This document shows positions 23,074-63,910 of a stretch of DNA of 64,000 nt, piece after piece (position 1 is the first letter of the stretch; every line of letters starts with the position of its first letter). The position numbers were made by a program, and so were the translations under genes. The DNA comes from an uncultured Porphyromonadaceae bacterium (GTDB lineage: Bacteria; Bacteroidota; Bacteroidia; Bacteroidales; Barnesiellaceae_A): the NCBI GenBank assembly GCA_937891845.1, contig CALATP010000026.1, forward strand, positions 26,429-90,428. The letters are read 5' to 3'. The notes under the pieces were generated by a model. That model had not been told where the DNA came from, made no database searches, and saw only the letters and a program-made list of their open reading frames with translations.

Positions 23074-24993
23074 ATGAAATCCAATGACTTTATGAAGCCT
23101 CACTATCAAGCCTTGCTGCAGTCCGACCGTAGCAATGCCGATGTGGCGGGCACCTTTATGCAACAAGATAATGAATTGCTCAACAAGGCACACGATGCGT
23201 GGAATGCTATGGCAACTTATAGGCAATGTCGCACACGCAATCGCAATTATACCTACGGAAAACAGTGGGTCGATCCCATCTCACTTGCCGATGGTCGCGT
23301 GCTTTCGGAGGAACAATATCTTCGCGAACAAGGCAAAGTGCCGCTCAAAAACAACCTCATCCGGCAGCTTGTCAAGAGTGTAATAGGACAGTTTAGAAGT
23401 GCCCAGACCGAGCCGGTGTGTATCTCTCGCGAACGCAAAGAACAATCATTGGGCGAAATTATGAGTGTCGTTATGCAATATGCCTATCAGCACAATCGGC
23501 TCTATGAACTCGACAGCCGCTCGCTCGAAGAGTTTCTCATTTCTGGTTCTTGTTTCCATAAGATTGGCTACGGAAATCGTCGCGGAAAAACCGATGTGTG
23601 GATAGATGCCGTACAACCTTCTCGTATCTTCTTCAACACGATGGAAGATTGTCGCCTGTGGGATTGCAATCTCATTGGCGAGTTGCACGATATGACTCTC
23701 AATGACGTTATAGCACGTTTTGCCGGTGGTAGCCCGCAGAAGGCTCGACACCTCCGACAAATATTTGGAGATGCAACCGATGTCAGTCATTACAACTCTA
23801 TCGACACTGCTTCGGCTCAACGTTTTGATTCAATTAACTTTTTTGTACCCGACAATTCTCACCATTGTCGCGTTATTGAGCTATGGACACTCGATAGTCG
23901 TGAGATGTTGCGTTGTCACGATACTATGTCGGGACAATTCTACAAAGTTGATGTTGCACTCGCACACGACGTAGAAAAAGAAAACCAACGTCGTAGGGAT
24001 GAAGCTGCATCGCGAGGTATCGAGGCCGCTCAAGTGCCCATTATCGAGACCGAATGGTTTCTGGAGAACTATTGGTACTACCGTTTCTTCTCTCCATTGG
24101 GACATATTCTTGATGAAGGCGAGTCGCCCTATTGGCACGGTGAACATCCTTATTCGTTGCGCCTTTACCCTATGATCGATAGTGAAATTCACTCCTTTGT
24201 CGAAGATGTCATTGACCAACAACGATATGTCAATCGACTCATTACTATGATCGACTTCATTATGGGTAGCAGTGCCAAGGGTGTACTATTATTCCCCGAA
24301 GACCAAATACCCGATGGAATGTCTCTCGATGATATCGCTACGGAGTGGACTCGTTGCAATGGTGTGATTCTCTTCCGGCCCAAGCCCGGTTGTGCTATGC
24401 CTCAGCAGATTGCTGTAAATGCAACTAATGTAGGTGCTTACGAACTATTATCCTTGCAGATGCGACTGCTCGAAGATATTTCGGGGGTACACAGTGCCAT
24501 ACAAGGCAAGGCTGTACCTTCGGGAACGGCATCTTCCCTATATGCTCAGCAAGTGCAATATTCGGCTGTCAATTTGCTCGACCTTTTTGAGTCCTTCAAG
24601 GCTTTTCGTGAGGAACGTGACACAAAGTTGATGAAAACTATTCAGCAATTCTACGACGAGAACCGTTACAAACTTATTGCCGGTGATGATAACTTCGATA
24701 CCGATAGTATCACACCCGAGAGAGTACGAAATGCCGAGTTCGATATTGTTATTGCCGAGTCGGCGTCTGCCCCTGCTTTCCGTCAGATGTCTAATGATTT
24801 TCTTTTGGAACTTTTCCGTTCTGGCCACATTTCGTTGCAAGCGCTACTCGAAACAGGCACTTTCCCTTTTGCCGACAAACTTTTACAATATGTCAACTCC
24901 GAGCAACAGCAACAAATGCAAATGATGGCTGCTCTCTCGCAGCAACAAGCTCCCGGTTCTTCATCACCGACAGCTCAACCTGCACAACTTTAA
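23074..24993 (+). CDS. phage portal (head-tail connector)-like protein
   Basis: 639 aa. N-terminal RNRNYTYGKQW-type motif, then a long alpha/beta core and a Gln-rich C-terminal tail (SEQQQQMQMMAALSQQQ). Overall resemblance to podovirus-type portals, judged by eye only. Confidence 0.6.
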   Translation: MKSNDFMKPHYQALLQSDRSNADVAGTFMQQDNELLNKAHDAWNAMATYRQCRTRNRNYTYGKQWVDPISLADGRVLSEEQYLREQGKVPLKNNLIRQLVKSVIGQFRSAQTEPVCISRERKEQSLGEIMSVVMQYAYQHNRLYELDSRSLEEFLISGSCFHKIGYGNRRGKTDVWIDAVQPSRIFFNTMEDCRLWDCNLIGELHDMTLNDVIARFAGGSPQKARHLRQIFGDATDVSHYNSIDTASAQRFDSINFFVPDNSHHCRVIELWTLDSREMLRCHDTMSGQFYKVDVALAHDVEKENQRRRDEAASRGIEAAQVPIIETEWFLENYWYYRFFSPLGHILDEGESPYWHGEHPYSLRLYPMIDSEIHSFVEDVIDQQRYVNRLITMIDFIMGSSAKGVLLFPEDQIPDGMSLDDIATEWTRCNGVILFRPKPGCAMPQQIAVNATNVGAYELLSLQMRLLEDISGVHSAIQGKAVPSGTASSLYAQQVQYSAVNLLDLFESFKAFREERDTKLMKTIQQFYDENRYKLIAGDDNFDTDSITPERVRNAEFDIVIAESASAPAFRQMSNDFLLELFRSGHISLQALLETGTFPFADKLLQYVNSEQQQQMQMMAALSQQQAPGSSSPTAQPAQL

Positions 24994-25025
24994 TATTTAC
25001 ACCGATGATGGGGCGGTTTTTCAAG

Positions 25026-25059
25026 AGGCTGTATCAAAATGAAAATTATGGTACAGCCT
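25026..25059 (+). terminator. intrinsic terminator after the portal-like gene
   Basis: aggctgta / tacagcct stem (extendable with one wobble) followed by ttttctggttt. Sits 33 nt after the stop. Confidence 0.55.
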
Positions 25060-25223
25060 TTTCTGGTTTCTATGGCTTGACATAATTCAGGGCGTGTGTG
25101 CATTACGGCATCCTGCACTTTTCTGCTATATACGTTGCTCTTTACCATTATGCATCTTTCTCAATATATAATGTCAATATCTTAAATATTTACAAAACGT
25201 TACTCTCTCTCAAAAAAATAAAC

Positions 25224-25231
25224 TAAATTTG
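25224..25231 (+). promoter_or_regulatory. -7 promoter box (TAAATTTG)
   Basis: TAnnTTTG match 32 nt upstream of ATG 25263. Confidence 0.4.
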
Positions 25232-25262
25232 TTCCCTAATATTTAATATATTACATTACAAT

Positions 25263-26129
25263 ATGAAAAAGATTATCATCTCGCTATCACTTCTTTTCAC
25301 AGTGATATTTACTTCGCAGGCCATCAACCCCGACAGTGTACGTTATAAACATCAATCTACCGATACAGCGCGTATCACAGAGGTTCTCAATGCCACTCGC
25401 AATGCGCAATTGCAATCTCCTGCCGATCGTATTACATTTATTGCCGGTCAATTCTTGGGCACTCCCTATGTTGCTGCTACACTCGAAGGCGAACCCGAGA
25501 TGCTCACTGTCAATACATCCGAGTTTGATTGCACAACATTTGTCGAGACCGTTATTGCTTTGGCTCTCACTGCGGATGTCGATTCGACTACATATCTCGA
25601 TTTTATCGACAACCTTGCCGCTTTGCGTTATCGCAACGGAGTGGTGGACGGATATGCATCACGCCTGCACTATGTGACCGACTGGATAGCTTGTAATTCC
25701 GAACGTAATATCTTTACCGAAATTACCAATCAAAATCCTCGTGTGGCTCACAAAAAAATCTCGTTGAATTATATGTCAAAGCACCGTCGTAGCTATCCCG
25801 CTTTGGCTTCCAACAACGAGGCTTATAATGCCATTCTCGATGTTGAGAAACCTTTCCTCAATTATAATATGCCCTACATCCCTAAGGCCGCTGTGGGGAC
25901 ACCGCAATGTAGCAAATGGCTCAAAAATGGTGATATCGTTTTTATTACCACATCTTTACAAGGTCTCGATGTAACGCATATGGGTATCATCGTATTTCAA
26001 CGAGGTATGCCATACCTCTTGCACGCATCATCAAAGGGCAAGCAAGTTATCGTCGATCCGCAACCCCTTAGCAACTATTTGCAGTCCAACAGCAATGCTA
26101 TCGGCATTCGTGTCGTAAGGCTCAACTGA
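25263..26129 (+). CDS. DUF1460 / N-acetylmuramoyl-L-alanine amidase-like secreted protein
   Basis: Signal peptide, then FIAGQFLGTPYVAATLEG...EFDCTTFVETVIALAL and a THMGIIV region typical of DUF1460. Confidence 0.6.
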   Translation: MKKIIISLSLLFTVIFTSQAINPDSVRYKHQSTDTARITEVLNATRNAQLQSPADRITFIAGQFLGTPYVAATLEGEPEMLTVNTSEFDCTTFVETVIALALTADVDSTTYLDFIDNLAALRYRNGVVDGYASRLHYVTDWIACNSERNIFTEITNQNPRVAHKKISLNYMSKHRRSYPALASNNEAYNAILDVEKPFLNYNMPYIPKAAVGTPQCSKWLKNGDIVFITTSLQGLDVTHMGIIVFQRGMPYLLHASSKGKQVIVDPQPLSNYLQSNSNAIGIRVVRLN

Positions 26130-26224
26130 TTTTGATTTATTCACCTATCGAAAACTTCCCGCAACATATCGTTGTTCTATCTGCGTAGAACACACTTTTA
26201 TGTACATTAAATTTTATATATAAT

Positions 26225-27589
26225 ATGTATTCCGATTTGCTTCGTCGCCAACGACTCTTTTATCTCGAACACATCACACGTGAGATTCCTTATCGTCTCA
26301 CGGCTCTCGACCGTTTGCGTGAGGGTATCATCGATCACGAAAAGGAGTTGACCGAAGCACTGCATAGCGACTTGGGTAAATCGGATTTCGAGAGCTACAC
26401 AACCGAGATAGGCATAATTCTCAGCGAAATAACCTATATGCAGCGCAATTTGCAACGATGGGCTGCTCAACGCTCGGTCTTTACCCCCATATCGCTCTTT
26501 GGTTCGCGCAGTAAGATTCATTATGAGCCACGAGGCGTGGTTCTCATCATTGCGCCTTGGAACTACCCGTTACAGCTGGCTTTTGCTCCGCTTATCGGTG
26601 CTATTGCCGCCGGAAACTGTGCCGTTGTCAAGCCCTCTTCTCAGTCGCCGCATACAGCCGCTGTAATGAAAAAGATTATTGACGAATGTTTTGAGGATGA
26701 GTATATTGCGCTTGTCGAACCCGTCGAAAAATCCTCTGATGAATTGCTCAAGTTGCAGTGGGATTACATTTTCTTTACCGGCGGTTCTACCCACGGTCGC
26801 AATGTGATGCAAGCCGCTGCCAAATATCTCACACCCGTTACGCTCGAATTGGGTGGTAAGAGTCCCTGCATTGTCGACCAAGATGCCGACCTACGCATCG
26901 CTGCTCAACGCATTGTGTGGGGTAAATTGATTAATTGCGGACAGACTTGCGTAGCTCCGGATTATCTCTTTGTCCACTCCGACGTGCGCGACCTACTCAT
27001 AGAGTTGATGAAAGAAGAGATTACCGCGCAATATGGTAGCAACCCGCTTCTCAGCCCCGACTACCCCCGTATTGTCAACACCAAGCACTTCGACCGATTG
27101 GTTGCTATGCTCACCGACGGTAATATTATCTATGGCGGGCAATATGACGCATCACAACGTTATATTGCTCCTACACTCATATACAACATTTCGCAAGACT
27201 CGCGCTTGTTGTCCGACGAAATTTTCGGCCCCATACTTCCTATCATCCCATTCAGCGATATAGACGATTGTGTCGAGCATATCAACAATCATCCTACACC
27301 GTTAGCACTATATTATTTCACCGGTAGTAAGAAAAAAGCGCAATATATCATCAATCATACTCAATCGGGTGGGGTATGTATCAACGATACCATCATACAC
27401 GTTGCCAATGCTCACCTGCCTTTTGGTGGTGTGGGAGCTAGCGGTATGGGACAATATCACGGCCGATATAGTTTTGAAACTTTCAGTCACGCCAAGGCGG
27501 TTGTTTCTACAACCACCAAGCTATACCTCGACATCAAGTTGGCTCCTTTTGGTAACAAACTCAAATGGGTCAAAAAACTACTCAAATAG
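26225..27589 (+). CDS. aldehyde dehydrogenase (class 3-like)
   Basis: ELGGKSPCIV and GQTCVAPDY (catalytic Cys) motifs. 454 aa. Confidence 0.9.
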   Translation: MYSDLLRRQRLFYLEHITREIPYRLTALDRLREGIIDHEKELTEALHSDLGKSDFESYTTEIGIILSEITYMQRNLQRWAAQRSVFTPISLFGSRSKIHYEPRGVVLIIAPWNYPLQLAFAPLIGAIAAGNCAVVKPSSQSPHTAAVMKKIIDECFEDEYIALVEPVEKSSDELLKLQWDYIFFTGGSTHGRNVMQAAAKYLTPVTLELGGKSPCIVDQDADLRIAAQRIVWGKLINCGQTCVAPDYLFVHSDVRDLLIELMKEEITAQYGSNPLLSPDYPRIVNTKHFDRLVAMLTDGNIIYGGQYDASQRYIAPTLIYNISQDSRLLSDEIFGPILPIIPFSDIDDCVEHINNHPTPLALYYFTGSKKKAQYIINHTQSGGVCINDTIIHVANAHLPFGGVGASGMGQYHGRYSFETFSHAKAVVSTTTKLYLDIKLAPFGNKLKWVKKLLK

Positions 27590-27652
27590 AAACAGCATAC
27601 ATCCCCGAGTGCCAAACTTTTTTCTTATCTTTGTTCCCTTAATTGTATTATA

Positions 27653-29992: not shown

Positions 29993-30017
29993 ACATCAAA
30001 TACAACTACAATATATT

Positions 30018-31151: not shown

Positions 31152-31174
31152 TCGATACATAACTAGAAACATCG

Positions 31175-31214
31175 CAAGGGGCTATGCTCAATTTTTATTG
31201 AGCATAGCCCCTTG
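31175..31214 (+). terminator. intrinsic terminator (perfect 18-bp stem, tttt loop)
   Basis: caaggggctatgctcaat-tttt-attgagcatagccccttg, 24 nt after the nspC stop. Confidence 0.7.
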
Positions 31215-31431: not shown

Positions 31432-31439
31432 CTATGTGT
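31432..31439 (+). promoter_or_regulatory. -7 promoter box (TAAATTTG) for the efflux operon
   Basis: TAnnTTTG match in an AT-rich spacer, 83 nt upstream of ATG 31522. Confidence 0.4.
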
Positions 31440-45166: not shown

Positions 45167-46246
45167 ATGGATAAAAATGCCAAAATTTACGTTGCCGGGC
45201 ATCGTGGACTTGTTGGTTCGGCTATTTGGAACAATCTGTTGAGCAAGGGATATACCAACCTCGTTGGTCGCACTCACTCCGAGCTCGATTTGCTCGATGC
45301 GGTCGCAGTTCGTAACTTCTTCGATGAACAGCTACCCGAATATGTTATTCTGGCCGCTGCTCACGTCGGTGGCATTATGGCCAATAATACATACCGTGCC
45401 GACTTTATTTACGAAAACCTTCAGATTCAACAGAATGTGATAGGGGAGAGTTTCCGTCACAATGTCAAGAAACTGCTTTTTCTGGGCAGTACCTGCATAT
45501 ATCCCCGCGAAGCTCCCCAACCTATGAGCGAAGATACACTGCTCACATCGCCACTGGAATATACCAACGAGCCCTATGCCATTGCCAAGATTGCAGGTCT
45601 CAAACTTTGCGAAAGTTTCAACATCCAGTATGGTACCAACTATATTGCAGTGATGCCCACCAACCTCTATGGCCCGCGTGACAATTTTCATCTCGAAAAC
45701 AGTCACGTCTTGCCGGCAATGATTCGTAAAATTCATCTCGGACAACAACTCTTTGCCGGCAATTGGGATGCCGTTCGTGCCGACCTCAATCTGCGTCCTG
45801 TCGAGCAAGTTGACGGCTCAGCTTCGCAAGACGATATTATACGCATCCTAGCCAAGTATGGCATCACTTCTTCAGCTGTCACTCTATGGGGGACAGGCAC
45901 TCCGGTGCGTGAATTCCTTTGGAGTGAAGAGATGGCCGATGCGTCAGTTTTTGTGTTGGAAAATGTCAACTTCTCCGACACCTATTCTCCTCTACAACGC
46001 GAGGTTCGCAACTGTCATATCAATATCGGTACCGGCAAGGAAATCTCTATTCGTGATGTTGCCAACCTCATTGTCAGCACAATAGGTTATCAAGGCGAGT
46101 TACGTTTCGATGCATCGAAACCCGATGGTACAATGCGCAAGCTCACCGATGTATCCAAGTTGCACCGACTGGGATGGCATCACTCTATCGAAATTGAAGA
46201 TGGTGTAGAGCGACTGTATAAGTGGTATTTACAAGGCGAAATATAA
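45167..46246 (+). CDS. fcl: GDP-L-fucose synthase
   Basis: IYVAGHRGLVGSA, LFLGSTCIYP, YAIAKIAG. Confidence 0.95.
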   Translation: MDKNAKIYVAGHRGLVGSAIWNNLLSKGYTNLVGRTHSELDLLDAVAVRNFFDEQLPEYVILAAAHVGGIMANNTYRADFIYENLQIQQNVIGESFRHNVKKLLFLGSTCIYPREAPQPMSEDTLLTSPLEYTNEPYAIAKIAGLKLCESFNIQYGTNYIAVMPTNLYGPRDNFHLENSHVLPAMIRKIHLGQQLFAGNWDAVRADLNLRPVEQVDGSASQDDIIRILAKYGITSSAVTLWGTGTPVREFLWSEEMADASVFVLENVNFSDTYSPLQREVRNCHINIGTGKEISIRDVANLIVSTIGYQGELRFDASKPDGTMRKLTDVSKLHRLGWHHSIEIEDGVERLYKWYLQGEI

Positions 46247-47166
46247 TATCCTACTTTCTAGGCAATCTTTTTATTAACACACAAAATCATCAAACTTTGG
46301 CCTACATTACACTACTTCGCCCGCAACAATGGTGCAAAAACCTCTTCATCTTTTTGCCCATATTTTTTGCTCAAGCCATTACCGATTACAATCGTTTGTT
46401 GGCTTGTGTGATAGCGTTTGTCGCTATGTGTATGATTAGTAGCAGTATATACATTCTCAATGATATCTGCGATCGCGATTACGACCGACTGCATCCGGTC
46501 AAGTCGCAACGACCCATCGCATCAGGACGTGTTTCGTTACCCGGTGCGTGGTGTATGTATACCTTCTTGTTGATTTTGGCTGTTGCACTTGTCGCCGCTT
46601 TTATTCCCAAGCAGTCTCTCATTGTCACGTTCTTGATATATTGGGTACTCAATCACGCTTACTCGTTATGGCTCAAGCATATAGCACTGCTCGACGTAAT
46701 GATTGTTGCGATAGGTTTTGTCTTGCGCATTCTGGTTGGAGCTTTTGCCGCCGATGTCACTCCCTCTCATTGGATTATCATTATGACCTACCTGTTGGCG
46801 CTATTTTTGGTTCTTGCCAAGCGACGTGATGATGTTATCAAATACGAGCAATCGCAGACCTCTCTACGACGCAATGTGCAGTATTACAACCGAGCTTTTC
46901 TCGACAACGCCATTACATTGGTTGCTGCTGTCACACTTGTCAGTTACATAATGTACACAGTCGATGATGCAATCATTGAACGATTTGATTGTCATTATGT
47001 TTATGCCACTGCCATATTTGTTTTGGCCGGATTACTCCGCTATCTCCAACTCACCATCGTTGAAGAAAACAGCGGTAGCCCCACTAAAATCATCATTCGC
47101 GATCGCTTTATGCGACTTTGTGTCATCGGGTGGATTTTACTCTTTGCATTCATTATATATGGATAA
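46222..47166 (+). CDS. UbiA-family prenyltransferase, decaprenyl-phosphate phosphoribosyltransferase-like
   Basis: Polytopic membrane protein with the NDICDRDYDRLHPVKSQRPIASG motif. Start is uncertain (GTG 46222 overlaps fcl; an in-frame TTG lies near 46294). Confidence 0.7.
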   Translation: MVFTRRNIISYFLGNLFINTQNHQTLAYITLLRPQQWCKNLFIFLPIFFAQAITDYNRLLACVIAFVAMCMISSSIYILNDICDRDYDRLHPVKSQRPIASGRVSLPGAWCMYTFLLILAVALVAAFIPKQSLIVTFLIYWVLNHAYSLWLKHIALLDVMIVAIGFVLRILVGAFAADVTPSHWIIIMTYLLALFLVLAKRRDDVIKYEQSQTSLRRNVQYYNRAFLDNAITLVAAVTLVSYIMYTVDDAIIERFDCHYVYATAIFVLAGLLRYLQLTIVEENSGSPTKIIIRDRFMRLCVIGWILLFAFIIYG

Positions 47167-47788
47167 ACCCACACTTGCACTTTTCGACTTCGACGGGACT
47201 CTCACACTTTCCGACACACTCCCGCTCTTTATGCGGCACGCTACCGGATGGGGAGGAATGTTATGTTCTATGCTGTCGGTCTTGCCGGCGATGTCTATTC
47301 TGGCTTGCAACGGTTGGAAGTCGATAGGTAATATCAGTGCCGGAGCAACCAAAGAAAAACTCCTGCATCGTTGTTTCAAGGGCAAGGCGCTGCAAGAGGT
47401 CGAGCCTATATGTACATCCTTTGCATCCACAATCGATACCGTCGTTGCACGTTCGGTATACGACTCTATGTTGAGTCACATCGAGCAAGGACACACCGTA
47501 GTCATTGTGTCGGCAAGTGTCGACAAGTGGATATTACCGTGGGCTTCACAGCTGGGAGTAAGCGAAGTGATAGCCACACAACTACAAGTTGTCGACGACA
47601 AGTACACTGGCCGATTTATGGGTAAAAACTGCAACGGCGAAGAAAAAGTACGTCGCATTGCCGAGCGATACTCTCCACACGATTATCACATCATTGCCTA
47701 CGGTAATAGCAGTGGTGACTATCCAATGTTCGATTTTGCTCACCAAGCATTCCTTTGTAACAAAGGGAACATCACACAATACAAGTAA
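47159..47788 (+). CDS. HAD-IB-family phosphatase
   Basis: LFDFDGTLT motif I, VVIVSAS, GNSSGD. ATG overlaps the stop of the UbiA-like gene. Confidence 0.75.
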   Translation: MDKPTLALFDFDGTLTLSDTLPLFMRHATGWGGMLCSMLSVLPAMSILACNGWKSIGNISAGATKEKLLHRCFKGKALQEVEPICTSFASTIDTVVARSVYDSMLSHIEQGHTVVIVSASVDKWILPWASQLGVSEVIATQLQVVDDKYTGRFMGKNCNGEEKVRRIAERYSPHDYHIIAYGNSSGDYPMFDFAHQAFLCNKGNITQYK

Positions 47789-49802: not shown

Positions 49803-50549
49803 CTATCGCTTTATTTTTATCTCATCCAGCGAGGTATCTCCACAAAGAGTGTTGAGGTCGACATCACCTTTTATGCCGTTGATGCGTCCGCGGCAGCTGT
49901 ATTGCCATATTGTGAGCGGATGTTTGTCGTGCAGGCGAGGGGTGAGTTTCAATTTGAATATCCCATATCTTGCTATCCACAGGTTGTTATTATTGAGTGT
50001 TCCTTTGAAAACGTCGTTGTAGAAACCTTGATGGGTGTAAATGATGGGAACTACGTTCCAATTGCGACTAATGATTTCGACAAACTTCTGCACGCTGTCG
50101 CGTATTTGTTTGTTGGTCATTTTGGACTTTTCTTCCACATCTATTACCGGTATGAGGTCTTGTGTAGAACGATTTACAACACTCATAAAGTTGCGATATT
50201 GTTTCTCTACCGGTATGTTGGGGTGGAAGTAGTGGTAGCTGCCTATGGGAATGCCAGCGGCTCGGGCTTGCATCACGTTGCGTTGGTACAAGGGGTCGTG
50301 ATAACTTTCTCCCTCGGTAGCCTTGATGTAAGCATACTTTACATTACCCTCTTGAGCTATGGCAATCCAGTCAATGTCACCTTGATGATGCGAAATGTCT
50401 ATGCCTTGTTTTTCCCAGTTGCCACAATCGCCTATGTTGTCACCCCGCAAGAAAAATATCACAGTGACAGCCACAAGTATAGCGATGGCAATAAATGCTA
50501 TCGTGTAGATGTGAGTCTGCTTCTTTTTATTTTTCTTTCTTTTTTTCAT
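49803..50549 (-). CDS. glycoside hydrolase family 25 lysozyme (muramidase) with N-terminal membrane anchor
   Basis: GIDISHHQGDIDW...YAYIKATEG...GSYHYF GH25 motifs. Lys-rich N-terminus plus one TM helix. ATG 50582 is an alternative start. Confidence 0.8.
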   Translation of the reverse strand: MKKRKKNKKKQTHIYTIAFIAIAILVAVTVIFFLRGDNIGDCGNWEKQGIDISHHQGDIDWIAIAQEGNVKYAYIKATEGESYHDPLYQRNVMQARAAGIPIGSYHYFHPNIPVEKQYRNFMSVVNRSTQDLIPVIDVEEKSKMTNKQIRDSVQKFVEIISRNWNVVPIIYTHQGFYNDVFKGTLNNNNLWIARYGIFKLKLTPRLHDKHPLTIWQYSCRGRINGIKGDVDLNTLCGDTSLDEIKIKR

Positions 50550-50618
50550 TGTTATATAGGGTTGTGACTGAGCAGAAGGCAATGTAGTGGTGTCGGCTGT
50601 CGTAATTCTATACAGCCT

Positions 50619-56223: not shown

Positions 56224-56254
56224 TGGGTTGTGTAGGGGTAGTTAATATATTGTA

Positions 56255-56677
56255 TCAGTTGATATTACGTCTTTCGCCAACGATGAGTATAACTTCGTCT
56301 TTCAAATCGTCGGGTAACTCGATGCCGCGAAGTTGCAGGCTGCGCACCCATCCGGCTACCTCGTGGCTTCGCATCGTGTAGAGTATATCGCGAAACGTAG
56401 CGCACTGTTCGGGAGTGTAGTTGTCGGAGGGGGTTCCTTTCCACTTGTCCAGTTCTTCATCGTCGTAGTATTCTATATCTTGACTTACAGCGGCCAATAG
56501 GCTGTCGCGTTCACATACTTCGTGTTGTCCGCAGCACTCCTCGGGGATGTCGGGAGCCGGAGGCTCGGGAGGAAGTCCCAACTTCAAGGCACGTTGTGTC
56601 TTGTATTGATGCAAAGCGTATGTAATGCTACCTGTCAGTATCAGTATGGCTATGATTATTATCACAACAGTTGTCAT
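56255..56677 (-). CDS. membrane-anchored hypothetical protein
   Basis: 140 aa with an N-terminal TM helix, then a CC-x4-C segment and an acidic domain. 4-nt overlap with aroA. Confidence 0.5.
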   Translation of the reverse strand: MTTVVIIIIAILILTGSITYALHQYKTQRALKLGLPPEPPAPDIPEECCGQHEVCERDSLLAAVSQDIEYYDDEELDKWKGTPSDNYTPEQCATFRDILYTMRSHEVAGWVRSLQLRGIELPDDLKDEVILIVGERRNIN

Positions 56678-57918
56678 AGTTTTATCTCCTTTCCGTTGTT
56701 GTCGGTGATATTAAAACCTGCCATTGCCAGATGTTGCCAAAACTCGGGGTATGACTTCTCAACGACCGATGGATGCAGGATGCATATCTCCTTGTGGGTG
56801 ATGGCTGCCGGCGCGAAGGTCATTGCAATGCGATGGTCGTTGCACGTGTCGATAACGATGGGATGTGTGATGTCGCACATATCACCACTCCATCTGATAG
56901 AGCCGTTGTGCGGTTGTGTGAGGATGTATCCCAACTTGCGTGCTTGTTGAATGGTGTCGGTAATGCGGTCGGTCTCTTTGATGCGCAGGTTGTGCAAGCC
57001 TTCGAAGCAGAAGTGTTGCCCTTTGAGCAGGCAACCTACTATAAGGGGTTGCGCCAAGTCGGGGCAGTGTGATAGATTGAGTAACCACTCTTGTTGGGTA
57101 ATAGAGTGTTGGCAAGGTGCAATGCGAGTGCCGTTGGTGCCGGGCTGTGTGGTTACACCCAATTTTTCGAAATATCGTGCTGCAATGGCATCACCTTGTA
57201 TGCCGGTTGTGGTGAGTTGATTGAGGTCGAATGATTGTTGCGACAACAGTGTTATCAGATACCAAAATGCCGCAGCCGACCAGTCACGCTCGATGTGGGG
57301 TGTGGTGTAACGATAGGATGAAGGTGGAATGCTTATTGTGTTGTCTTTTTGTATGACATTGATGCCATATTGTTGCATCAATGCCAAAGTCATATCGATG
57401 TATGGTCTTGATGTTATGTGACCTTGCAGTGTGAGCTGTACTCCTTGTGTTGTGTAGGGAGCTATGAGCAGTATGGCCGAAATAAATTGAGAGCTGATAT
57501 GAGCCGGAATGGTGACAGCTCCCCCCTTAAGGGTGTTGCCATTGATGCGTAACGGAGGAAATCCTTCTTGTCCTATGTATGCAATGTCGGCTCCTATATC
57601 ACGTAGTGCATCGACGAGCGGAGCAATGGGTCGTTGCAGCATACGAGGCGATCCTGTGAGGATGCGTGAGCCCGGTTGTGTGGCAAAATAGGCTGTGAGA
57701 AATCGCATTGCAGTGCCGGCATTGTCGATGTTGATGGTGGTGTTGTCGGTAGCCAGAGCCTCTAGCATAACAGATGTGTCGTCGCAATGAGCCAATCCTT
57801 CGGGCGGATACACCGATTGAGCGAGTGCGTTGATGATGAGCACTCGATTGCTTATACTCTTAGACCGAGGGAGGTCGATAGAGCAGTTGTGTAATGTGGG
57901 AGCTGTAATGCGATACAT
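56674..57918 (-). CDS. aroA: 3-phosphoshikimate 1-carboxyvinyltransferase (EPSP synthase)
   Basis: KSISNRVLI, NAGTAMRFL, MLQRPIAPLVDALRDIGA. Confidence 0.9.
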   Translation of the reverse strand: MYRITAPTLHNCSIDLPRSKSISNRVLIINALAQSVYPPEGLAHCDDTSVMLEALATDNTTINIDNAGTAMRFLTAYFATQPGSRILTGSPRMLQRPIAPLVDALRDIGADIAYIGQEGFPPLRINGNTLKGGAVTIPAHISSQFISAILLIAPYTTQGVQLTLQGHITSRPYIDMTLALMQQYGINVIQKDNTISIPPSSYRYTTPHIERDWSAAAFWYLITLLSQQSFDLNQLTTTGIQGDAIAARYFEKLGVTTQPGTNGTRIAPCQHSITQQEWLLNLSHCPDLAQPLIVGCLLKGQHFCFEGLHNLRIKETDRITDTIQQARKLGYILTQPHNGSIRWSGDMCDITHPIVIDTCNDHRIAMTFAPAAITHKEICILHPSVVEKSYPEFWQHLAMAGFNITDNNGKEIKL

Positions 57919-57948
57919 CTATGTAGTGAGTAGCAATGAATGGTAGCT

Positions 57949-58299
57949 TTATTGGTTTTCGGAGCGACGTGTACCCAACAGTTCCATAACATCGGCTACA
58001 ATCTCGGTGCGTTGGTGTGTAACACCGGCTTGGTCGTTCCATTGGTTGGTACGTAGCTTGCCTTCGATATACAATTGAGTGCCTTTGCGTACGTATTTTT
58101 CGGCAATCTCGGCCAATCCACGCCACAGAACGATGTAGTGCCATTCGGTACGGTCGGGAACTTGAGTGCCATTGGCAGCGGTGTATCCACGCTCGGTAGT
58201 AGCCATTCGTAGGCGAGCTACACATACACCTTTTTCGAGGTATCTAATTTCGGGGTCGGCTCCTACGTGACCAACCAAGATTACTTTGTTTACAGACAT
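57949..58299 (-). CDS. ssb: single-stranded DNA-binding protein (short form)
   Basis: VNKVILVGHVGADPEIRY OB-fold start, and W...HYIVLWRGLAEIAEKYVRKGTQLYIEGKLRTNQW. 116 aa, with no acidic C-terminal tip. TACCTTTG -7 box on the minus strand at 58324-58331. Confidence 0.85.
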   Translation of the reverse strand: MSVNKVILVGHVGADPEIRYLEKGVCVARLRMATTERGYTAANGTQVPDRTEWHYIVLWRGLAEIAEKYVRKGTQLYIEGKLRTNQWNDQAGVTHQRTEIVADVMELLGTRRSENQ

Positions 58300-58449
58300 A
58301 ATAATATAGTATGAAATGAAAAACAAAGGTAGTGATTATGTGTTTAACTCGCAATGATTTTTTTGATTTTTAGCGTGTGTTGCAATTCAAGATTTGGGCA
58401 GTAAACAGTATCATTTTTTCATAATGGTTGGAGCTGTGGATCGTTGTGT

Positions 58450-60429
58450 CTAGAACGAGGCTTCGTTGATGATATTGTTGTGTCGTGTGTATGTGATAAC
58501 GGCGGTAGGTTCTTGTTGTGCAACGTATAGTCCGATGCATCGAGTAATGAGTATGTCGTCGTGTTCGCCTTCTTGTGCGCCATAACTGCCGTTGGGCTTG
58601 CGTTCAAACACGTCAAACTCGTGACAAGCCATCTCGTCGTGTTCGATGTAGTTGTTGTTGCGCAGAGCATTTATCATCGTATTGATGATGATGTTCTTGG
58701 TGTTGCGATTCATATGAAACCCCCATCTTGTCGGTGCCGAGAGTGCTATTTCGTCGCCGGTCATCTGTCGGGCATATAGATTGTTGTAGTGTCGTGCAAT
58801 GGTGTCGAGGATGTAGAACGGACGTGCATCGTCGTGCTCGGTCTCGAGTGTATTACTTTCGATGACCAACAGAGCTTTGTTGTAGAATGTTGCTATCTGA
58901 GCAGCTTTCCACGCCAAAAGGTCGTGGTCGATGTGTCCGCGCCATTGGGCTACCAGCTCTATTGTGTTGTCGATGTTGAGTCGAGAACGGTCAAATACGG
59001 CGATGACCGAAAAATCGGCTTTGCTTGAGCGTCCGCCAATGTCTACGGCAACGATGTATTGGTTGCGAATGATACGTGACGGTTGAGGCATTTGCCATAT
59101 TTTTAGGAGTCCTGTCGATTCTTGTCGGAAGTCGATGCCTGATAGTGCTTTATGTCCGGTTATGTCGTTGGCTACGAGCTCGCCCACAGCGATGGGAGTA
59201 GAACAGTTGTCGCGCAGTCGTTGTATGGCAATCGGGTCGAAAACTCGTTCGAGAGAATGAGCAAAGGCTTCGGTCTCGTCGGATGGATATTCGGCCATCA
59301 TATCGGCATGGTGGGAGTATTCTCGTAGTTTGGCACGATACCACGCAATGGCTTCGAGAGTAGCCCCCATCTGCCATAGCCACTTTTCGTATCGGTTGAG
59401 AGAAGAAGCAAATGCGTGATAGTCGTCGATGGGTTGGCTATACATCTCTATTTCGTACCAGGGAACAAAAATAGCAGTTTTGTCGCTCTCGTTGCGCTTG
59501 GCTCTGAGGTACTCGCGATGGAAGTAACCACCAGTTCCATTGGCAGTGCTTTCTATTACAACGATAGAGTGCGGCAATAGTGCAATACTGCCGTAAATGG
59601 ATCGGATGAGACTCTCGGGCGTATGAGCCGGAGTGTTGCTCCAGAATGCAGCCTCACTGAGGTGTGCCATTGCGATGTCGTTGCCACGAATGGCTTCGGG
59701 CGACTCGGCCGAGCATATTGTGACTTTGCAATTGCGTTGAGCTATCAATGAGGTGTTGGAAGAGCGTTCAAATGGTTGAAAATGTGGTGTGTCCGGTGCG
59801 CCAATGAGCCACGCCGGATAGTTGCTGAGTAGCTTTGTGTACATACCCTTGATGTTGGCAGCAGCATCTTTGAGGTGGGCGCAGATGATGCTGTTCCAGT
59901 TGTGTAGGTGAACGAGTTGTATCCAGGCCATATACACTTGAGTGAGTGTAGAACCACCCCATTGTCTGGCCTTGAGCATAATGATGCGTATGGGCTTGTG
60001 TGCGCAACGTTGCGTTTCGAGCAACTCGAGGTATCGTCGTTGAGGCCGGTTGAGGATGAAAGGAACGTCGTCTTGTCCCATTTTGTCTTTGATCTTGACA
60101 AACATAGCAGCCCAAAACTCAAAGTCGTGTAGAATACGCTCTTTTATCCATAATGACCAGATGTCGCTGCGCAGTCGCCTTGAAGGGCGTTTTTTGAGAT
60201 GTCGAGAAATAAAAGTGTCGATGCTGCCGGCTTCGACCAAAAGCCTAACCCAATTGCAGCTGTCGAGCATAGTATGTGGAATGTATTGCTCGGTGATGGG
60301 AGCATCGGAAAGAGTAACAAGAGTGCGTTGCGCACCACACCCTTCGCCCGTAGCGGGGTTGTAGGTGTGGTGAGAGGCACTTTTGCGACGATTGTTCTCG
60401 GAAATAATGTCGTTGATGTCTTGTAGCAT
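58450..60429 (-). CDS. terL: phage terminase large subunit-like protein
   Basis: ATPase motifs LKARQWGGST (Walker A-like), IAMAHLSEAAFW (Walker B position) and VIESTANG (motif III). C-terminal RNase H-like nuclease signature (VAVDIGGRS...DFSVIAV, EGEHDDILITR). Confidence 0.7.
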   Translation of the reverse strand: MLQDINDIISENNRRKSASHHTYNPATGEGCGAQRTLVTLSDAPITEQYIPHTMLDSCNWVRLLVEAGSIDTFISRHLKKRPSRRLRSDIWSLWIKERILHDFEFWAAMFVKIKDKMGQDDVPFILNRPQRRYLELLETQRCAHKPIRIIMLKARQWGGSTLTQVYMAWIQLVHLHNWNSIICAHLKDAAANIKGMYTKLLSNYPAWLIGAPDTPHFQPFERSSNTSLIAQRNCKVTICSAESPEAIRGNDIAMAHLSEAAFWSNTPAHTPESLIRSIYGSIALLPHSIVVIESTANGTGGYFHREYLRAKRNESDKTAIFVPWYEIEMYSQPIDDYHAFASSLNRYEKWLWQMGATLEAIAWYRAKLREYSHHADMMAEYPSDETEAFAHSLERVFDPIAIQRLRDNCSTPIAVGELVANDITGHKALSGIDFRQESTGLLKIWQMPQPSRIIRNQYIVAVDIGGRSSKADFSVIAVFDRSRLNIDNTIELVAQWRGHIDHDLLAWKAAQIATFYNKALLVIESNTLETEHDDARPFYILDTIARHYNNLYARQMTGDEIALSAPTRWGFHMNRNTKNIIINTMINALRNNNYIEHDEMACHEFDVFERKPNGSYGAQEGEHDDILITRCIGLYVAQQEPTAVITYTRHNNIINEASF

Positions 60430-60435
60430 ACGTGA

Positions 60436-60687
60436 TTAGAGTTTTTTGAGTTGTTTTTCGATCTCGGCAATGCGATTGAGTGTATCGCTGAAAGCATCTT
60501 GTTTGTTGCCGTTGGGAGCCATCAGTGCTGCCATATCCTTGCGAATAATCTCAATGCACTTGATGAGTACTGTTTCGTTGGTTGTTTCGCGCAAAACGTC
60601 GAGCAGACGGTCGTAACAGATGTGAATGGCTTCGTTCTGCTTGGCGAGTAGTGACGCGATGTCGTTCAAATTGAAAATTTCTGTCAT
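60436..60687 (-). CDS. small helical hypothetical protein (in the position of a small terminase subunit)
   Basis: 83 aa from ATG 60687. Its stop lies 6 nt before the terL start. No motif, so the suggestion rests on position only. Confidence 0.4.
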   Translation of the reverse strand: MTEIFNLNDIASLLAKQNEAIHICYDRLLDVLRETTNETVLIKCIEIIRKDMAALMAPNGNKQDAFSDTLNRIAEIEKQLKKL

Positions 60688-60743
60688 AAATATTAAAAAT
60701 TTAAAGTGTTGAAATGTGCGATACCTTTTATCGCATCGAGATG

Positions 60744-60751
60744 CAAAGTTA
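60744..60751 (-). promoter_or_regulatory. -7 promoter box (TAACTTTG on the minus strand) for the terminase operon
   Basis: The reverse complement of caaagtta matches TAnnTTTG, 57 nt upstream of ATG 60687. Confidence 0.4.
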
Positions 60752-60757
60752 GAGCGC

Positions 60758-60769
60758 GATATTTGCACA
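60758..60769 (+). promoter_or_regulatory. near-consensus -7 box (GATATTTG) for the divergent plus-strand genes
   Basis: One mismatch to TAnnTTTG. Shares the 11-mer ATATTTGCACA with the portal promoter at 22830-22840. Sits 40 nt upstream of ATG 60806. Confidence 0.3.
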
Positions 60770-60805
60770 GCGATGCTATAAAATGACTAACAAAAAATTT
60801 TTTTT

Positions 60806-61351
60806 ATGCTTAATGAAATGTTTAATTGGGCGTATGATTACGCCTTTAAGAGTTACTCAAACAAGAAAAAGAGAGACTCGTATAACGAGTTGTATAACAA
60901 ACAGCTACAACATTACAACACTCGTCTGGGTGCAGCTACATCGTTGTTCAATCACGCCTATTATCGTAACTATCTTGATACTCCCAATGCCCGTAATATG
61001 CTGAAACGGGTGCGAGAGCAACTCTCGGAGCAAACACGCAAGTTGCGTAATGCCGGTGTCGTAACCGGTGCTACAAGTGAAGCGATAGCAGCACAACAAA
61101 AGAATAATAATAAGTTGATAGATAATGTGATAGGAACACTTGCCAATGCCGATGCTGCTCGAAAAGATCGCGCGTTGGAGAATTATGCCAATGAGCGAAG
61201 TCGCTTGTCCGATTATTTGTTTCAGGCCGATATAAATCGTTATGGCAAGTTGTATGAGTTGGAGCAGGAGGAGCTGATGGATAATGCAAAATTCTGGAAA
61301 CCTATTGCTTCAATGTTTTCGCAAAGAATAGAAGATTTGATCAATAAATAG
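60806..61351 (+). CDS. coiled-coil hypothetical protein (phage-associated by context)
   Basis: 181 aa, Asn/Lys/Arg-rich helical sequence. First gene of the plus-strand unit divergent from terL. Confidence 0.5.
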   Translation: MLNEMFNWAYDYAFKSYSNKKKRDSYNELYNKQLQHYNTRLGAATSLFNHAYYRNYLDTPNARNMLKRVREQLSEQTRKLRNAGVVTGATSEAIAAQQKNNNKLIDNVIGTLANADAARKDRALENYANERSRLSDYLFQADINRYGKLYELEQEELMDNAKFWKPIASMFSQRIEDLINK

Positions 61352-61353
61352 AA

Positions 61354-61677
61354 ATGATGAGTGAGAGAAATTGTAAAGCCGGCTCGATGCAAGGCGTGGG
61401 CGAGGCAGGTGCAACCGGTGTTGCAGAAAGAGAGTGTGGGGTGGCCGGCAATGATGTGCTGAATGAGTTGCAAGAGATGTGCCGATGTGTGAGTCGCGGA
61501 AGAAGATGTGGCATGCACAACGGTGTGTCAGCCTTGTTGCGCTCGTGGTATATGCCACGTGATGTGTATGATGTCGAGTGTTACAAGCGACGTTTCTATG
61601 TGTTACGTGGGTTGCAAGCTATATTAAGTGAGATATTGAACAAACAAAAAAAAGGTGGAAATGAAACAGAACATTGA
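61354..61677 (+). CDS. small Cys-rich hypothetical protein
   Basis: 107 aa with 7 Cys. Starts 3 nt after the previous stop and overlaps the next gene by 23 nt. Confidence 0.4.
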   Translation: MMSERNCKAGSMQGVGEAGATGVAERECGVAGNDVLNELQEMCRCVSRGRRCGMHNGVSALLRSWYMPRDVYDVECYKRRFYVLRGLQAILSEILNKQKKGGNETEH

Positions 61678-63910
61678 AGATAGAGATTACGAAGAGAATA
61701 ATCTGTTGGAATATTTGCCTCGACATATGTGGGGAGGAGATGTAAAAAAGGTTATTGAAGAAAATGACCTGTATAGAGGCAATCCCAATGCTCTTACGAC
61801 TTTGGAATATCGTAGTCCGATATATAGACCCGAAGAGCGTACGATGCCGAGTTATGTGATGAGATTTTTGTTGGAAAAGTCACAGAGGACAGCAACGGAT
61901 TTTGGTGCAAATTTGATGAGAAGATTGATGCAATATCAAAATTCGACATCGCATTTGCAAGAAGATGAGTCGTATTTAGAACCTTTGAGTCACTCGTTGA
62001 GATTTCCTCATCGACGAGACGATATGCCACCGATGGCAATGCCCGAGACGGGAACTGTGAGTGTGGGTGCGCCGGGTAATGATGGCAAACCGGTGAGCAG
62101 TGCGACTCCATCGAGTGCCGGGGGTGTAGAATCGGGTGCCACAGAAACTTCTCCTACGTACAATCATAAAACAACAGATGGCGAAGAGAATGTCGTGAAA
62201 CGATTTGATGAAGGTGTGCAGACCGCCTTCAATCAGATAGAGTTGTCGTGGGACTATCTGATGAAGAATGTAGAGAAGTTTTTTACCAAAGATCCGGCGA
62301 AACGGCAAAGTCTGGACTACAAATTGTACGAGATAGGGCAAAAGTATGCCGCCATACCCAAGACACTGGGAGCAGCGACAGTGGGAAACATAGGTACTAA
62401 TATAGTGGCAGGAGCATTGCCCGTAGCTATAGCCGGAGTGGTGGGAGGTACGTCGGGAGCTGCCGTTGCCGGAGGTGCAATGGCTGTTACCGATATAGCC
62501 AATACTATAGCAAGTGCCAATTTGGAAATGGATGGTTATGAGAGCGCAACGGGTGAGAAGTTGTCGGGTGCTACACGTTCGGCGTATGTTATATCGTCGG
62601 TTGCGTCGGGACTGATTATGGATGCAATTATGGTATTACCTTTTATGAAAAAACTCACTCCGTCCTTGCGTAAAGACGTGAACAAGCAGTTGCAACAAGC
62701 CATTTTCAATAATCCTGTTTCACAGCGGGAGTTTAATGTGATGACCCAGCAAGTGTTGCGCAATGAGTTGCCCTATTGGAATAAGGTACTGATGGGAAAT
62801 GCATTGGAGTCGGGTGTAGGCGGAGGCTTGTCGGCCGGATTGCAAGAGGCGAGTCGCAGTATCTATACACGTGAGGCACCTGAATTGTCGCAAATAGTCA
62901 CTTCAACATTGACCGGAGTGGCAGTGGGTGCAACGCAAGGTACGTTGGGTACGGCAGTGAAACGATATAATTTGTCGCAAGAGCGCGCCGGTAGTGACGA
63001 AACCTTCTATGTGAGCAACCAATTCCGAAAGTCGAGTACAGGGCAGGAGATAGCCGAGTTGCGACCTACTGCGATAGAGCAGTCGGACAGCGGAGAGACT
63101 TATGTAAAGGGTCATATTGTCAATCCCGGCGGTGATATTGAAGCCGAGCAGGTATTTCCGATAGAGAATGTTTCGGTGGGGTCGTATCGAGGTGCGCAAG
63201 AGTCGGGTGCTACTAATGTGACTTGGAAAGACTTGTATAAGATACCGGATGAGCGCATAAAGATGTATAATGACAAGTGGAATGAAGCTCGTATCAAGTA
63301 TGATGATGAAGCCAGACGTGAGGAGGCCTATGCCGCGCAGAGTGATATTGTGCAGGGTATAGCGCAAGAGATGGGTATTCCTGTGACTGTGTATGCCAAA
63401 CTGGAAGACTTGCCAAAGGAATTGCAGAATAATCCGGAGGTGATAAATTCGTATGCAGTGACTGTGGAAGATGATGAAATCTTGTTGGTATTAGATCAAT
63501 GTCAGGGCTTGACCGCCGACAATATAGCAGCCGTTCTTCGTCACGAGGCAATAGGTCACTATGGTTTGCCCAAATTGTATGCCGACAATGCCGATTATAA
63601 TAAAGTAATCTATGACTTGGGAAAGAAGATTCTCAAATCGAAGAAACCTACTATGGTGTTTGATGATAATAATGCGGCCAGACGCCAGCATATTATGGAG
63701 GTGGTGGAGGAGTATATATCGCGTAATGCCGAGCCGCGACCGTATAATGCGGCCCACTTGCAACACAATCCATATGACTTGGTATATGATATGTTGGTGC
63801 GCAGTGACAAGAACTTGTTGAATATGACTATGAATGAGAAGCGTAAGAGAGCCAGGATGGCCGGTAAGCCAATGCCTCGTCTTTTGGGTAACAGTCCGTA
63901 TTTTGATTGA
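61655..63910 (+). CDS. large phage-associated protein (internal/minor-head or polyvalent-type; function unknown)
   Basis: 751 aa. Gly/Ala-rich hydrophobic tract (GAATVGNIGTNIVAGALPVAIAGVVGGTSGAAVAGGAMAV), HEAIGH segment, charged C-terminus. Confidence 0.5.
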   Translation: MEMKQNIEDRDYEENNLLEYLPRHMWGGDVKKVIEENDLYRGNPNALTTLEYRSPIYRPEERTMPSYVMRFLLEKSQRTATDFGANLMRRLMQYQNSTSHLQEDESYLEPLSHSLRFPHRRDDMPPMAMPETGTVSVGAPGNDGKPVSSATPSSAGGVESGATETSPTYNHKTTDGEENVVKRFDEGVQTAFNQIELSWDYLMKNVEKFFTKDPAKRQSLDYKLYEIGQKYAAIPKTLGAATVGNIGTNIVAGALPVAIAGVVGGTSGAAVAGGAMAVTDIANTIASANLEMDGYESATGEKLSGATRSAYVISSVASGLIMDAIMVLPFMKKLTPSLRKDVNKQLQQAIFNNPVSQREFNVMTQQVLRNELPYWNKVLMGNALESGVGGGLSAGLQEASRSIYTREAPELSQIVTSTLTGVAVGATQGTLGTAVKRYNLSQERAGSDETFYVSNQFRKSSTGQEIAELRPTAIEQSDSGETYVKGHIVNPGGDIEAEQVFPIENVSVGSYRGAQESGATNVTWKDLYKIPDERIKMYNDKWNEARIKYDDEARREEAYAAQSDIVQGIAQEMGIPVTVYAKLEDLPKELQNNPEVINSYAVTVEDDEILLVLDQCQGLTADNIAAVLRHEAIGHYGLPKLYADNADYNKVIYDLGKKILKSKKPTMVFDDNNAARRQHIMEVVEEYISRNAEPRPYNAAHLQHNPYDLVYDMLVRSDKNLLNMTMNEKRKRARMAGKPMPRLLGNSPYFD

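Follow-up and report, generated by a model that had tools for sequence, protein, structure and literature searches.

Vertically inherited portal and terminase genes dispersed among core genes of Barnesiellaceae: a possible gene transfer agent-like packaging system in Bacteroidales

The closest known kind of element to the genes described here is the gene transfer agent (GTA), particularly the multi-locus GTA of Rhodobacter capsulatus (RcGTA) and the podovirus-related GTA of Faecalibacterium (FpGTA). RcGTA consists of phage-derived head and packaging genes that are chromosomally fixed, vertically inherited and under purifying selection; it has no integration or replication genes, is spread over several loci and cannot package itself, and a small protein is encoded upstream of its large terminase gene (TerL), in the position of a small terminase (PMC5026251; PMC6854486). 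FpGTA is a gut-bacterial system that is related to short-tailed phages, is split into two operons and came to light through host DNA that was packaged uniformly into virus-like particles (VLPs) (Nat Commun 2026, PMC12946183). In this study, we analysed a stretch of 64,000 nucleotides (the window) from an uncultured Porphyromonadaceae bacterium of the Barnesiellaceae (contig CALATP010000026.1, positions 26,429 to 90,428), in which a phage-type portal gene and a TerL gene lie apart among host genes. The features of RcGTA named above are found here as well. However, RcGTA keeps a contiguous head-tail cluster of ~15 kb and is derived from a siphovirus, whereas here TerL and portal are separated, the source is podovirus-like (P22-type portal, SU10-type capsid), the host belongs to the Bacteroidota, a capsid is so far unseen in this lineage, and particles and transfer are predictions. 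FpGTA shares with it the gut habitat, the short-tailed-phage relationship and the split organization, but FpGTA I is a compact 10.5-kb operon (TerS, TerL, portal, scaffold, capsid) validated by proteomics and imaging, resides in the phylum Bacillota and has no sequence relationship to the window set.

Phage-inducible chromosomal islands (PICIs), including the capsid-forming cf-PICIs, are likewise chromosome-resident and carry a few head and packaging genes but no tail genes. These satellites are, however, contiguous mobile islands with an integrase, a replication module and a patchy distribution, whereas the window set is dispersed, immobile, kept across genera, devoid of an integrase and flanked by core genes, and thus does not have the make-up of a satellite. 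In the mammalian gut, Bacteroidales are the dominant bacteria, and they exchange genes frequently. To our knowledge, only conjugative elements and ordinary transduction have been described as exchange routes in this order. In a literature search, we found neither a GTA nor a conserved set of chromosomal terminase, portal and capsid genes described for Bacteroidota, as the original prediction for this DNA, made from the letters alone, had also supposed.

The window contains six genes of one phage-derived set that is anciently fixed, vertically inherited, rearranged among core genes and held under housekeeping-like constraint:

23074-24993, plus strand: solitary P22-type portal gene, 639 aa, between an Omp85-like gene and an AmiA-like amidase gene
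58450-60429, minus strand: TerL, large terminase gene, 659 aa, with ATPase and RNase-H-like nuclease domains (PHROG, profile and model)
60436-60687, minus strand: up83, 83-aa gene, member of the TerL-side set
60806-61351, plus strand: 181-aa gene (p181), homologue of phage gp57
61354-61677, plus strand: 107-aa gene between the 181-aa and 749-aa genes, called in same-species contigs
61661-63910 (open reading frame, ORF, opens at 61655), plus strand: 749-aa gene (p751 family), a reduced relative of the giant "polyvalent"/DarB-like head protein of phages

Both packaging proteins were identified by profile searches and compared with solved structures. The portal matched Pfam P22_portal (PF16510) with E 2e-38 and 132.6 bits (cut-off 26.1) over profile positions 5-572 of 594, as well as PHROG 156 portal (E 4e-74), and a profile of its homologues matched solved portal proteins (PDB 8jov, E 6e-11). 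Its AlphaFold (AF2) monomer model is poor (pLDDT 54; Foldseek TM-scores at most 0.25), and the PDB matches of this model at E <= 1e-3 were podovirus portals in 35 of 35 cases (Pan3, phicrAss001, P22, Sf6). TerL had no Pfam match; it matched the PHROG 2 terminase large subunit (E 6.5e-24), and its profile matched T4 gp17, including the ATPase domain (E 1e-11). The TerL model (pLDDT 80) retrieved large terminases as all of its top 32 PDB matches in Foldseek (T4 gp17, E 2e-22), and the matches include the RB49 gp17 nuclease domain (TMt 0.75). The ATPase motifs KARQWGGST (Walker A), HLSE (Walker B-like) and ESTANGTG (coupling) do not vary among 47 homologues and the phage copy; the same holds for the nuclease residues D463 (in DIGGRS), E524/E529 (in ESNTLE; ESNTxE) and D624/D625 (in HDD), the phage copy included.

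Both genes are intact, and the ~33 kb that separate them hold ordinary host genes. By Pfam domain these encode an aldehyde dehydrogenase, UvrD, an Orn/DAP/Arg decarboxylase and a TolC(OEP)/HlyD/AcrB pump, followed in our inventory by rmlACDB-type genes, GMD and an epimerase, UbiA, HAD, GT4 and GH25 proteins, and by TsaE, PglZ, TPR, ABC-3, EPSP synthase and SSB. A search of the window by tblastn with all ORFs of the temperate phage BKO1-TP3 matched only TerL and the portal; no integrase, repressor or capsid homologue was found, and the window holds no tRNA and no Rfam match. The GC content of the portal and TerL genes (0.46-0.48) is inside that of their neighbours (0.43-0.49). In all these points the original prediction was right: it had placed portal-like and TerL-like genes at these positions, had called the intervening genes host-like, had seen no integrase, tRNA, capsid, tail or repressor gene, and had judged both genes by eye to be indistinguishable from core neighbours in base composition. 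Its inventory was incomplete on the TerL side, where up83 and the module of the 181-, 107- and 749-aa genes (60806-63910, plus strand), two of which have homologues in the same phages, had been overlooked. It had also expected, on the more ordinary explanations of two prophage remnants or one split prophage, a second portal just beyond 64000. Four same-species metagenome contigs (93-132 kb) run on at this point into thiamine pyrophosphokinase, PnuC and TatD, then into a polyprenyl synthase, two proteins of unassigned function and glutamate dehydrogenase (gdh). No prophage or second portal is present in the ~10 kb seen there, which rules out a contiguous prophage past 64000 and therefore removes both ordinary explanations in the form in which they had been put.

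The genes beside TerL link the set further to phages. The 181-aa protein belongs to a family that aligns with BKO1-TP3 gp57, with common YY, G-T-E and Y motifs; gp57 is the first gene of the phage operon gp57-gp56-gp55-portal, and in the closest viral relatives p181-like genes come directly after TerL. The 749-aa protein is related (25% identity, E 4e-22) to a 774-aa protein encoded near the portal of Barnesiella viscericola, and this protein and other family members match residues ~4350-4530 of BKO1-TP3 gp55, a 5,554-aa DarB-like "polyvalent" protein. The conserved core of the family is Gly/Ala-rich and hydrophobic, with hydrophobic segments at ~245-275 and 309-335, and its HEAIGH (HExxGH) motif is retained in the window lineage. 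Neither p181 nor p751 has a Pfam domain and both gave weak PHROG matches; a profile search of PDB sequences with p751 gave nothing. The 107-aa gene is poorly conserved (by tblastn, six relatives have a 26-42% match at the corresponding position) and had no family match in Pfam or PHROG. In B. viscericola DSM 18177 the portal is again solitary, between miaA/an outer membrane protein (OMP) gene and ferritin/H+-PPase genes, and a 169/166/774-aa module lies 4 kb downstream of it. The first and last genes of this module are homologous to the 181-aa gene (39% identical to the 169-aa gene) and to the 749-aa gene of the window. The module therefore accompanies TerL in the window lineage and the portal in B. 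viscericola.

Only three phages in the isolated-phage collection hold close relatives of both TerL and the portal, namely BKO1-TP3, BS-TP4 and BF1-TP2, which are temperate Bacteroides phages (PMC12694917). Their TerL proteins are 43-44% and their portals 41-47% identical to those of the window (46% for the BKO1-TP3 portal, compared with 59-73% for chromosomal Barnesiellaceae homologues), and the two genes lie 1-3 kb apart. Since three phages carry both genes at such short distance, both derive from one phage lineage and not from two unrelated elements; the idea of two unrelated remnants is contradicted also by Coprobacter and Caccoplasma, where the two genes are 2.4 kb apart. The same phage genomes also carry an SU10/DUF5309 capsid gene, the giant polyvalent protein, gp57, a diversity-generating retroelement (DGR), an integrase and a repressor. 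Among 2.9 million viral contigs of IMG/VR, 598 TerL matches were found, the best of them only 50-51% identical to the window TerL. In the 80 best viral loci, which were examined for context, a capsid gene lies within 10 kb of TerL in 74 and a portal gene in 67. The closest viral type, which is also a common prophage (L099/L100), has the order TerL, p181-like gene, MuF_C/PolyVal giant protein. This prophage, whose TerL is 50% identical to that of the window, was seen on >300 contigs, is very common in the gut and proved useful as the outgroup phage type; its giant protein of >3,800 aa carries Kinase-PolyVal, ART-PolyVal and MuF_C domains. Taken together, the isolated phages and the IMG/VR and prophage type (L099-L107) share with the chromosomal set a homologous TerL (43-51%), gp57/p181 and a polyvalent protein with a p751-like region, the isolated phages also the portal, and Muribaculaceae additionally have the SU10 capsid and a gp34-like protein in common with phages. 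The phages differ in having contiguous genomes of 64-68 kb with integrase, repressor, replication genes, DGR, lysis genes and a capsid module beside TerL, whereas the chromosomal set of the window has none of these features and its relatives form separate host-family clades. Judged by these homologies, the source phage was temperate, podovirus-like and from Bacteroidales, and belonged either to the BKO1-TP3 type or to the related L099 prophage type.

The distribution of TerL was analysed in one genome per GTDB species, which gave >567 relatives; the best 80 were examined and fell into three classes. True prophages account for 15 of these loci (Bacteroides, Parabacteroides, Prevotella, Alistipes, Porphyromonas, Butyricimonas; 44-45% identity), which have the capsid module beside TerL, and in most of them capsid module, TerL, portal and polyvalent gene are contiguous. 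Barnesiellaceae make up the second class (23 of 80 loci, 55-75% identity), in which no locus has a capsid gene within 10 kb and most retain the order p751 < p181 <> up83 > TerL. The third class (42 of 80 loci, 46-50% identity) is mostly Muribaculaceae; here a gp34-like gene and TerL form a tandem pair in 29 of 42 loci and the flanks vary, and in three loci of this clade TerL follows one common seven-gene block, confirmed as ftsA-ftsZ in one of them (L077). The ORFs are full-length in nearly all 65 non-prophage loci. In Caccoplasma (L028), the order is TerL, rplU, rpmA, DUF4919, portal (on the opposite strand) and a homologue of phage gp34 of ~890 aa, and three related loci (L023, L026, L027), Coprobacter among them, have the same order by matching gene clusters. 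Around the portal, gene order is identical between the window and a relative (69.5% portal identity) from the extracytoplasmic function (ECF) sigma gene through the resistance-nodulation-division (RND) pump, and the portal context of B. viscericola recurs in a second Barnesiella species. TerL and portal occupy orthologous positions in close relatives. The gp34-like protein (~800-890 aa) matches PHROG 32516 and, weakly, virion structural, internal virion and tail-appendage families; it has no Pfam domain, and a profile search of PDB sequences gave nothing. Adjoining TerL or the portal in relatives, it is the only candidate for a tail or delivery apparatus. As a separate observation, the solitary TerL of a Barnesiella-like 3.16-Mb contig (L006, 7028-9803) directly follows a DpnII-type restriction-modification system with two methyltransferases.

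Selection was measured as the ratio of nonsynonymous to synonymous substitution rates (dN/dS) on species pairs with unsaturated dS:

TerL: 0.04-0.12
portal: 0.054 (close species pair)
up83: 0.02-0.13
gp34-like: 0.10-0.24
p181: 0.15-0.24
p751: 0.17-0.38
most flanking host genes: 0.02-0.15

Portal and TerL are thus under purifying selection (~0.05) in the range of the flanking genes, and within the same species pair the dS of TerL equals that of its flanks. TerL retains 74-75% identity in the nearest other species, where the adjoining aroA has only 51-58%, and the identity of the portal (69.5%) falls within the 50-91% of its twelve neighbours. The relaxed selection, pseudogenes and strain-specific presence that mark a cryptic or decaying remnant were not found. 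In a neighbour-joining (NJ) tree, the TerLs of Barnesiellaceae and of Muribaculaceae each form a clan with 99-100% bootstrap. An unrooted tree with three TerL clans was rejected as uninformative proof of a single capture, and the tree was therefore redone with an outgroup (a distant podovirus TerL); in 145 of 200 replicates of this rooted NJ tree, the TerLs of Barnesiellaceae and Muribaculaceae grouped as one clade that excludes every prophage and viral TerL. One capture before the split of the two families is moderately supported by this topology, and Muribaculaceae have a parallel set, which is probably identical by descent to that of Barnesiellaceae. For portal and gp34-like protein, identities place Barnesiellaceae closer to phage than to Muribaculaceae, which leaves room for two captures or for faster evolution in Muribaculaceae.

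Since a packaging system of this kind needs a shell, the occurrence of capsid genes in relatives is of particular interest. In L067, an isolate genome of the Muribaculaceae clade, a short portal and an SU10-type capsid gene lie 5 kb from TerL. This capsid has >2,000 homologues; identity falls gradually from 88% to 52% across the best 120, and those with a name belong to Muribaculaceae. A compact head cluster was present in the five independent Muribaculaceae-type contexts examined (L067, L093, L096, L101, L182), with the order 72-140-aa protein (weakly scaffold-like in L093), SU10 capsid, 171-221-aa protein (in L067 replaced by an overlapping 273-aa ORF call) and portal (427-494 aa), followed in most cases by one or two small proteins. 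Outside L067 these clusters are flanked by host genes, namely proB/proA, rpsT, polA-der-era-fabH, serS-queG, SusC/D and asnA. In Heminiphilus, the two small post-portal proteins come directly after TerL, and this, together with the linkages within the head clusters, joins the loci as parts of a single dispersed system. When the Muribaculaceae capsid was used for an exhaustive profile search, 910 representatives were recovered; cluster look-ups for the 20 best outside the training set of the profile named only Muribaculaceae, and three context look-ups gave one prophage (L099) and two further Muribaculaceae-type head clusters. The Muribaculum intestinale capsid (cluster P0375) is truncated or split in many copies (297 aa on 197 contigs), and one isolate has it as adjacent ORFs of 210 and 195 aa; the gene may be decaying in part of this species.

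We are confident that the genes go back to one phage source, were domesticated and have since descended vertically under purifying selection. This evolutionary part of the original prediction, which had proposed domesticated and dispersed packaging genes, is upheld by vertical inheritance, dN/dS of ~0.05, synteny, intact catalytic motifs and viral relatives no closer than 50-51%. As in GTAs, phage-derived structural genes are fixed, vertical and under purifying selection; there are no integration, replication or lysogeny genes, and the set is unable to package its own full complement. The GTA or other particle function that the original prediction suggested is so far a hypothesis: searches for capsid or tail genes in the lineage of the window were negative, and the capsid-portal cluster was seen only in Muribaculaceae. 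With respect to a GTA head set, portal and TerL are present here, and the capsid/scaffold-like/portal cluster was found in the sister family. The Muribaculaceae capsid is the main reason why we rank a GTA-like system first. In this reading, the genes would still work jointly as a machine that packages DNA into heads. The portal would form the dodecameric vertex of a capsid-like shell, and TerL, perhaps with the 83-aa protein as partner, would dock on it, the intact nuclease cutting and the ATPase pumping DNA. The 181-, 107- and 749-aa proteins would descend from the portal-proximal internal-protein operon of the phage and be packed or ejected with the DNA. A capsid gene elsewhere in the genome would be required, and none has been seen yet in this lineage. 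Because the set lacks replication, integration and lysogeny genes and is non-contiguous, it could not package itself, and its product would be a GTA-like particle carrying host DNA. For the proposal as a whole, a domesticated multi-locus GTA-like head-packaging system including this particle mechanism, we consider the chances evenly balanced.

Several observations weigh against this proposal. The searches gave no gene for a capsid, scaffold, adaptor or tail protein in the window, in the 10 kb beyond it or, at any Barnesiellaceae locus, within a distance of 10 kb from TerL or the portal, and none of the capsid relatives that could be named or placed is from Barnesiellaceae. When the BKO1-TP3 ORFs and the Muribaculaceae head-cluster proteins were searched by tblastn against the window and the Barnesiellaceae loci covered by each search, only TerL, the portal and the gp55 region of p751-like genes were matched. 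The gp34-like gene was not found in the window by tblastn either. The truncated and split copies in M. intestinale imply that the capsid may be dispensable there. Gene content also varies between lineages: up83 is absent beside TerL in the Barnesiella-type loci L006, L029, L032 and L052, and some lineages have lost the HExxGH motif of p751. A search with nhmmer did not find the palindromic element that lies beside TerL (see below) upstream of the portal, so no operator ties both promoters together, and the single capture has an NJ bootstrap of only 72%.

That no capsid gene was found for Barnesiellaceae is the natural starting point for a different explanation, in which the genes were exapted without a particle of their own, for example for poisoning procapsid assembly or mis-cutting concatemers of related phages, or for other DNA handling. 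Potential targets would be plentiful, since related temperate phages are widespread in Bacteroidales (15 of the 80 GTDB loci are prophages, in addition to the 598 IMG/VR matches), and the lineage-specific gene content and the partly decayed look of the M. intestinale capsid fit as well. However, defence genes are usually fast-evolving and patchy, whereas here dN/dS is ~0.05 and orthologous positions are kept across genera; a decoy would not need the two catalytic centres of TerL, which are both invariant; and the sister family holds capsid, scaffold-like and portal genes together among core genes. We therefore regard this explanation as unlikely, though it deserves to be taken seriously. Less probable again, and in our view improbable, is a helper-dependent system that takes capsid and tail from a co-resident or infecting phage of the same type and redirects packaging to host DNA or an unlinked element, in the manner of a satellite. 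Such a system would explain why the retained genes are those that decide packaging (TerL, portal) together with the head-internal p181 and p751 while shell and tail genes are missing locally, and phage relatives have the same module architecture. It is difficult to reconcile with the lack of an integrase, a replication module or att-like repeats, with genes 33 kb apart that could not be mobilised as a unit, with the absence of a helper prophage from the 74 kb seen and with a capsid encoded by Muribaculaceae themselves. Moreover, a portal enters the procapsid at nucleation and so must fit the helper capsid, and the identity to viral portals is at most ~49% (isolated phages and TerL-flanking viral loci).

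That the genes are functionless debris, two remnants of one or two prophages, would account for their phage origin and for the lack of the rest of a prophage. Against it stand ORFs that are full-length at nearly all of the non-prophage loci, the low dN/dS of TerL and a dS equal to that of its flanks, a TerL more conserved than aroA, well-supported host-family clades, core-gene synteny and the host genes past 64000; we consider it very improbable indeed. Returning to the GTA-like system, its widest form would be an ancient multi-locus GTA common to Barnesiellaceae and Muribaculaceae, derived from a podovirus-like temperate phage and the first in Bacteroidota, which would pack host DNA into small capsids and could explain Muribaculaceae DNA in VLPs. 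We put this forward tentatively, with somewhat less than even expectation. Muribaculaceae (Duncaniella) DNA was reported to be enriched with uniform coverage in mouse gut VLP fractions, by a mechanism that is unexplained (bioRxiv 10.64898/2026.07.08.737213); this is circumstantial, a lead and not evidence.

Regulation of the set may be reflected in two non-coding regions:

60725-60782, no strand assigned: conserved palindromic element of ~58 bp, between up83/TerL and the 181-aa gene
22577-23073, plus strand: 497-bp non-coding gap upstream of the portal gene, read from the sequence

up83 lies six bases upstream of TerL and is called as an 83-aa gene in same-species contigs. Among the 14 Barnesiellaceae loci in which it is conserved, Cys24/Cys44 do not vary and a KCIE motif is present, and by its position it would be the small terminase. 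It had no match in the 80 viral loci and no detectable relation to phage gp49 or gp50; an origin as a relic of these TerL-upstream phage genes was unsupported (hhalign probability <1%). The gap between up83/TerL and the 181-aa gene is 118 bp and forms a divergent promoter region. The core of the palindromic element, GCAAA-N17-TTTGC, corresponds to two divergent Bacteroidetes-type -7 boxes with inverted arms on both sides, and the arms co-vary between lineages (TAGCATCG/CGATGCGA, TCACATCA/CGATGTGA, TAACATC/GATGTTA). By nhmmer there is one copy per locus, matched on both strands; a common operator of the portal and TerL promoters was rejected, as the search gave no second copy. A putative site for a dimeric regulator is the likeliest function. 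In the gap upstream of the portal, a TATATTTG box, the hairpin GGGAACATTGTTCCC and a GC stem with a T-run behind it can be seen (22828-22968, plus strand); the gap presumably contains the portal's own promoter and could also encode a small RNA or terminated leader, and it had no Rfam match. A sigma-70 promoter and terminator scan yielded no information for this Bacteroidetes genome.

Several neighbouring genes are of interest in their own right. The interval includes two genes for cell-wall hydrolases. One encodes an AmiA-like amidase (25263-26129, plus strand) and directly follows the portal, as does its 50% identical counterpart in a relative; the other encodes a GH25 muramidase (49803-50582, minus strand). 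Both may serve lysis in a particle system or may simply be housekeeping genes. A short SSB gene (57949-58326, minus strand; 116-125 aa) adjoins TerL, also matches phage SSB PHROG 44 and apparently lacks the usual C-terminal tail; its adjacency to TerL is kept only in the lineage of the window. The UbiA-like (46222-47166) and HAD-like (46964-47788) ORFs, on the plus strand, overlap by ~200 bases as listed, and the true start of the HAD gene is probably further downstream. Small ORFs at 17262-18140 near the portal were rejected as head-cluster homologues because they resemble LTXXQ/Spy-type proteins. About 7 kb past the window end, near the TerL module, a conserved 763-aa protein (L008, 16988-19279, minus strand) has dN/dS of ~0.15 in relatives; it had no Pfam match, and no tie to the phage-derived set was found. 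Positions 1-16000 are a low-GC (0.31-0.35) glycosyltransferase/capsule locus with Wzy-like, GT1/GT4 and epimerase genes and, unusually, acyltransferase and KAS III-like genes, which looks like a laterally acquired surface-polysaccharide or lipid locus.

Virus-detection tools are likely to mis-score loci of this kind as prophage fragments. If no particles are made, a terminase and portal that persist without a capsid, under constraint as strong as that on housekeeping genes, would represent a novel form of packaging-motor exaptation. If particles are made, the system would be a new GTA lineage that evolved independently from a short-tailed phage and would help in testing why GTAs persist, and it would be a new, host-controlled route of DNA exchange in two major families of gut bacteria. 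Either outcome can be tested in the cultivable Barnesiella viscericola, Coprobacter fastidiosus, Muribaculum intestinale and Duncaniella.

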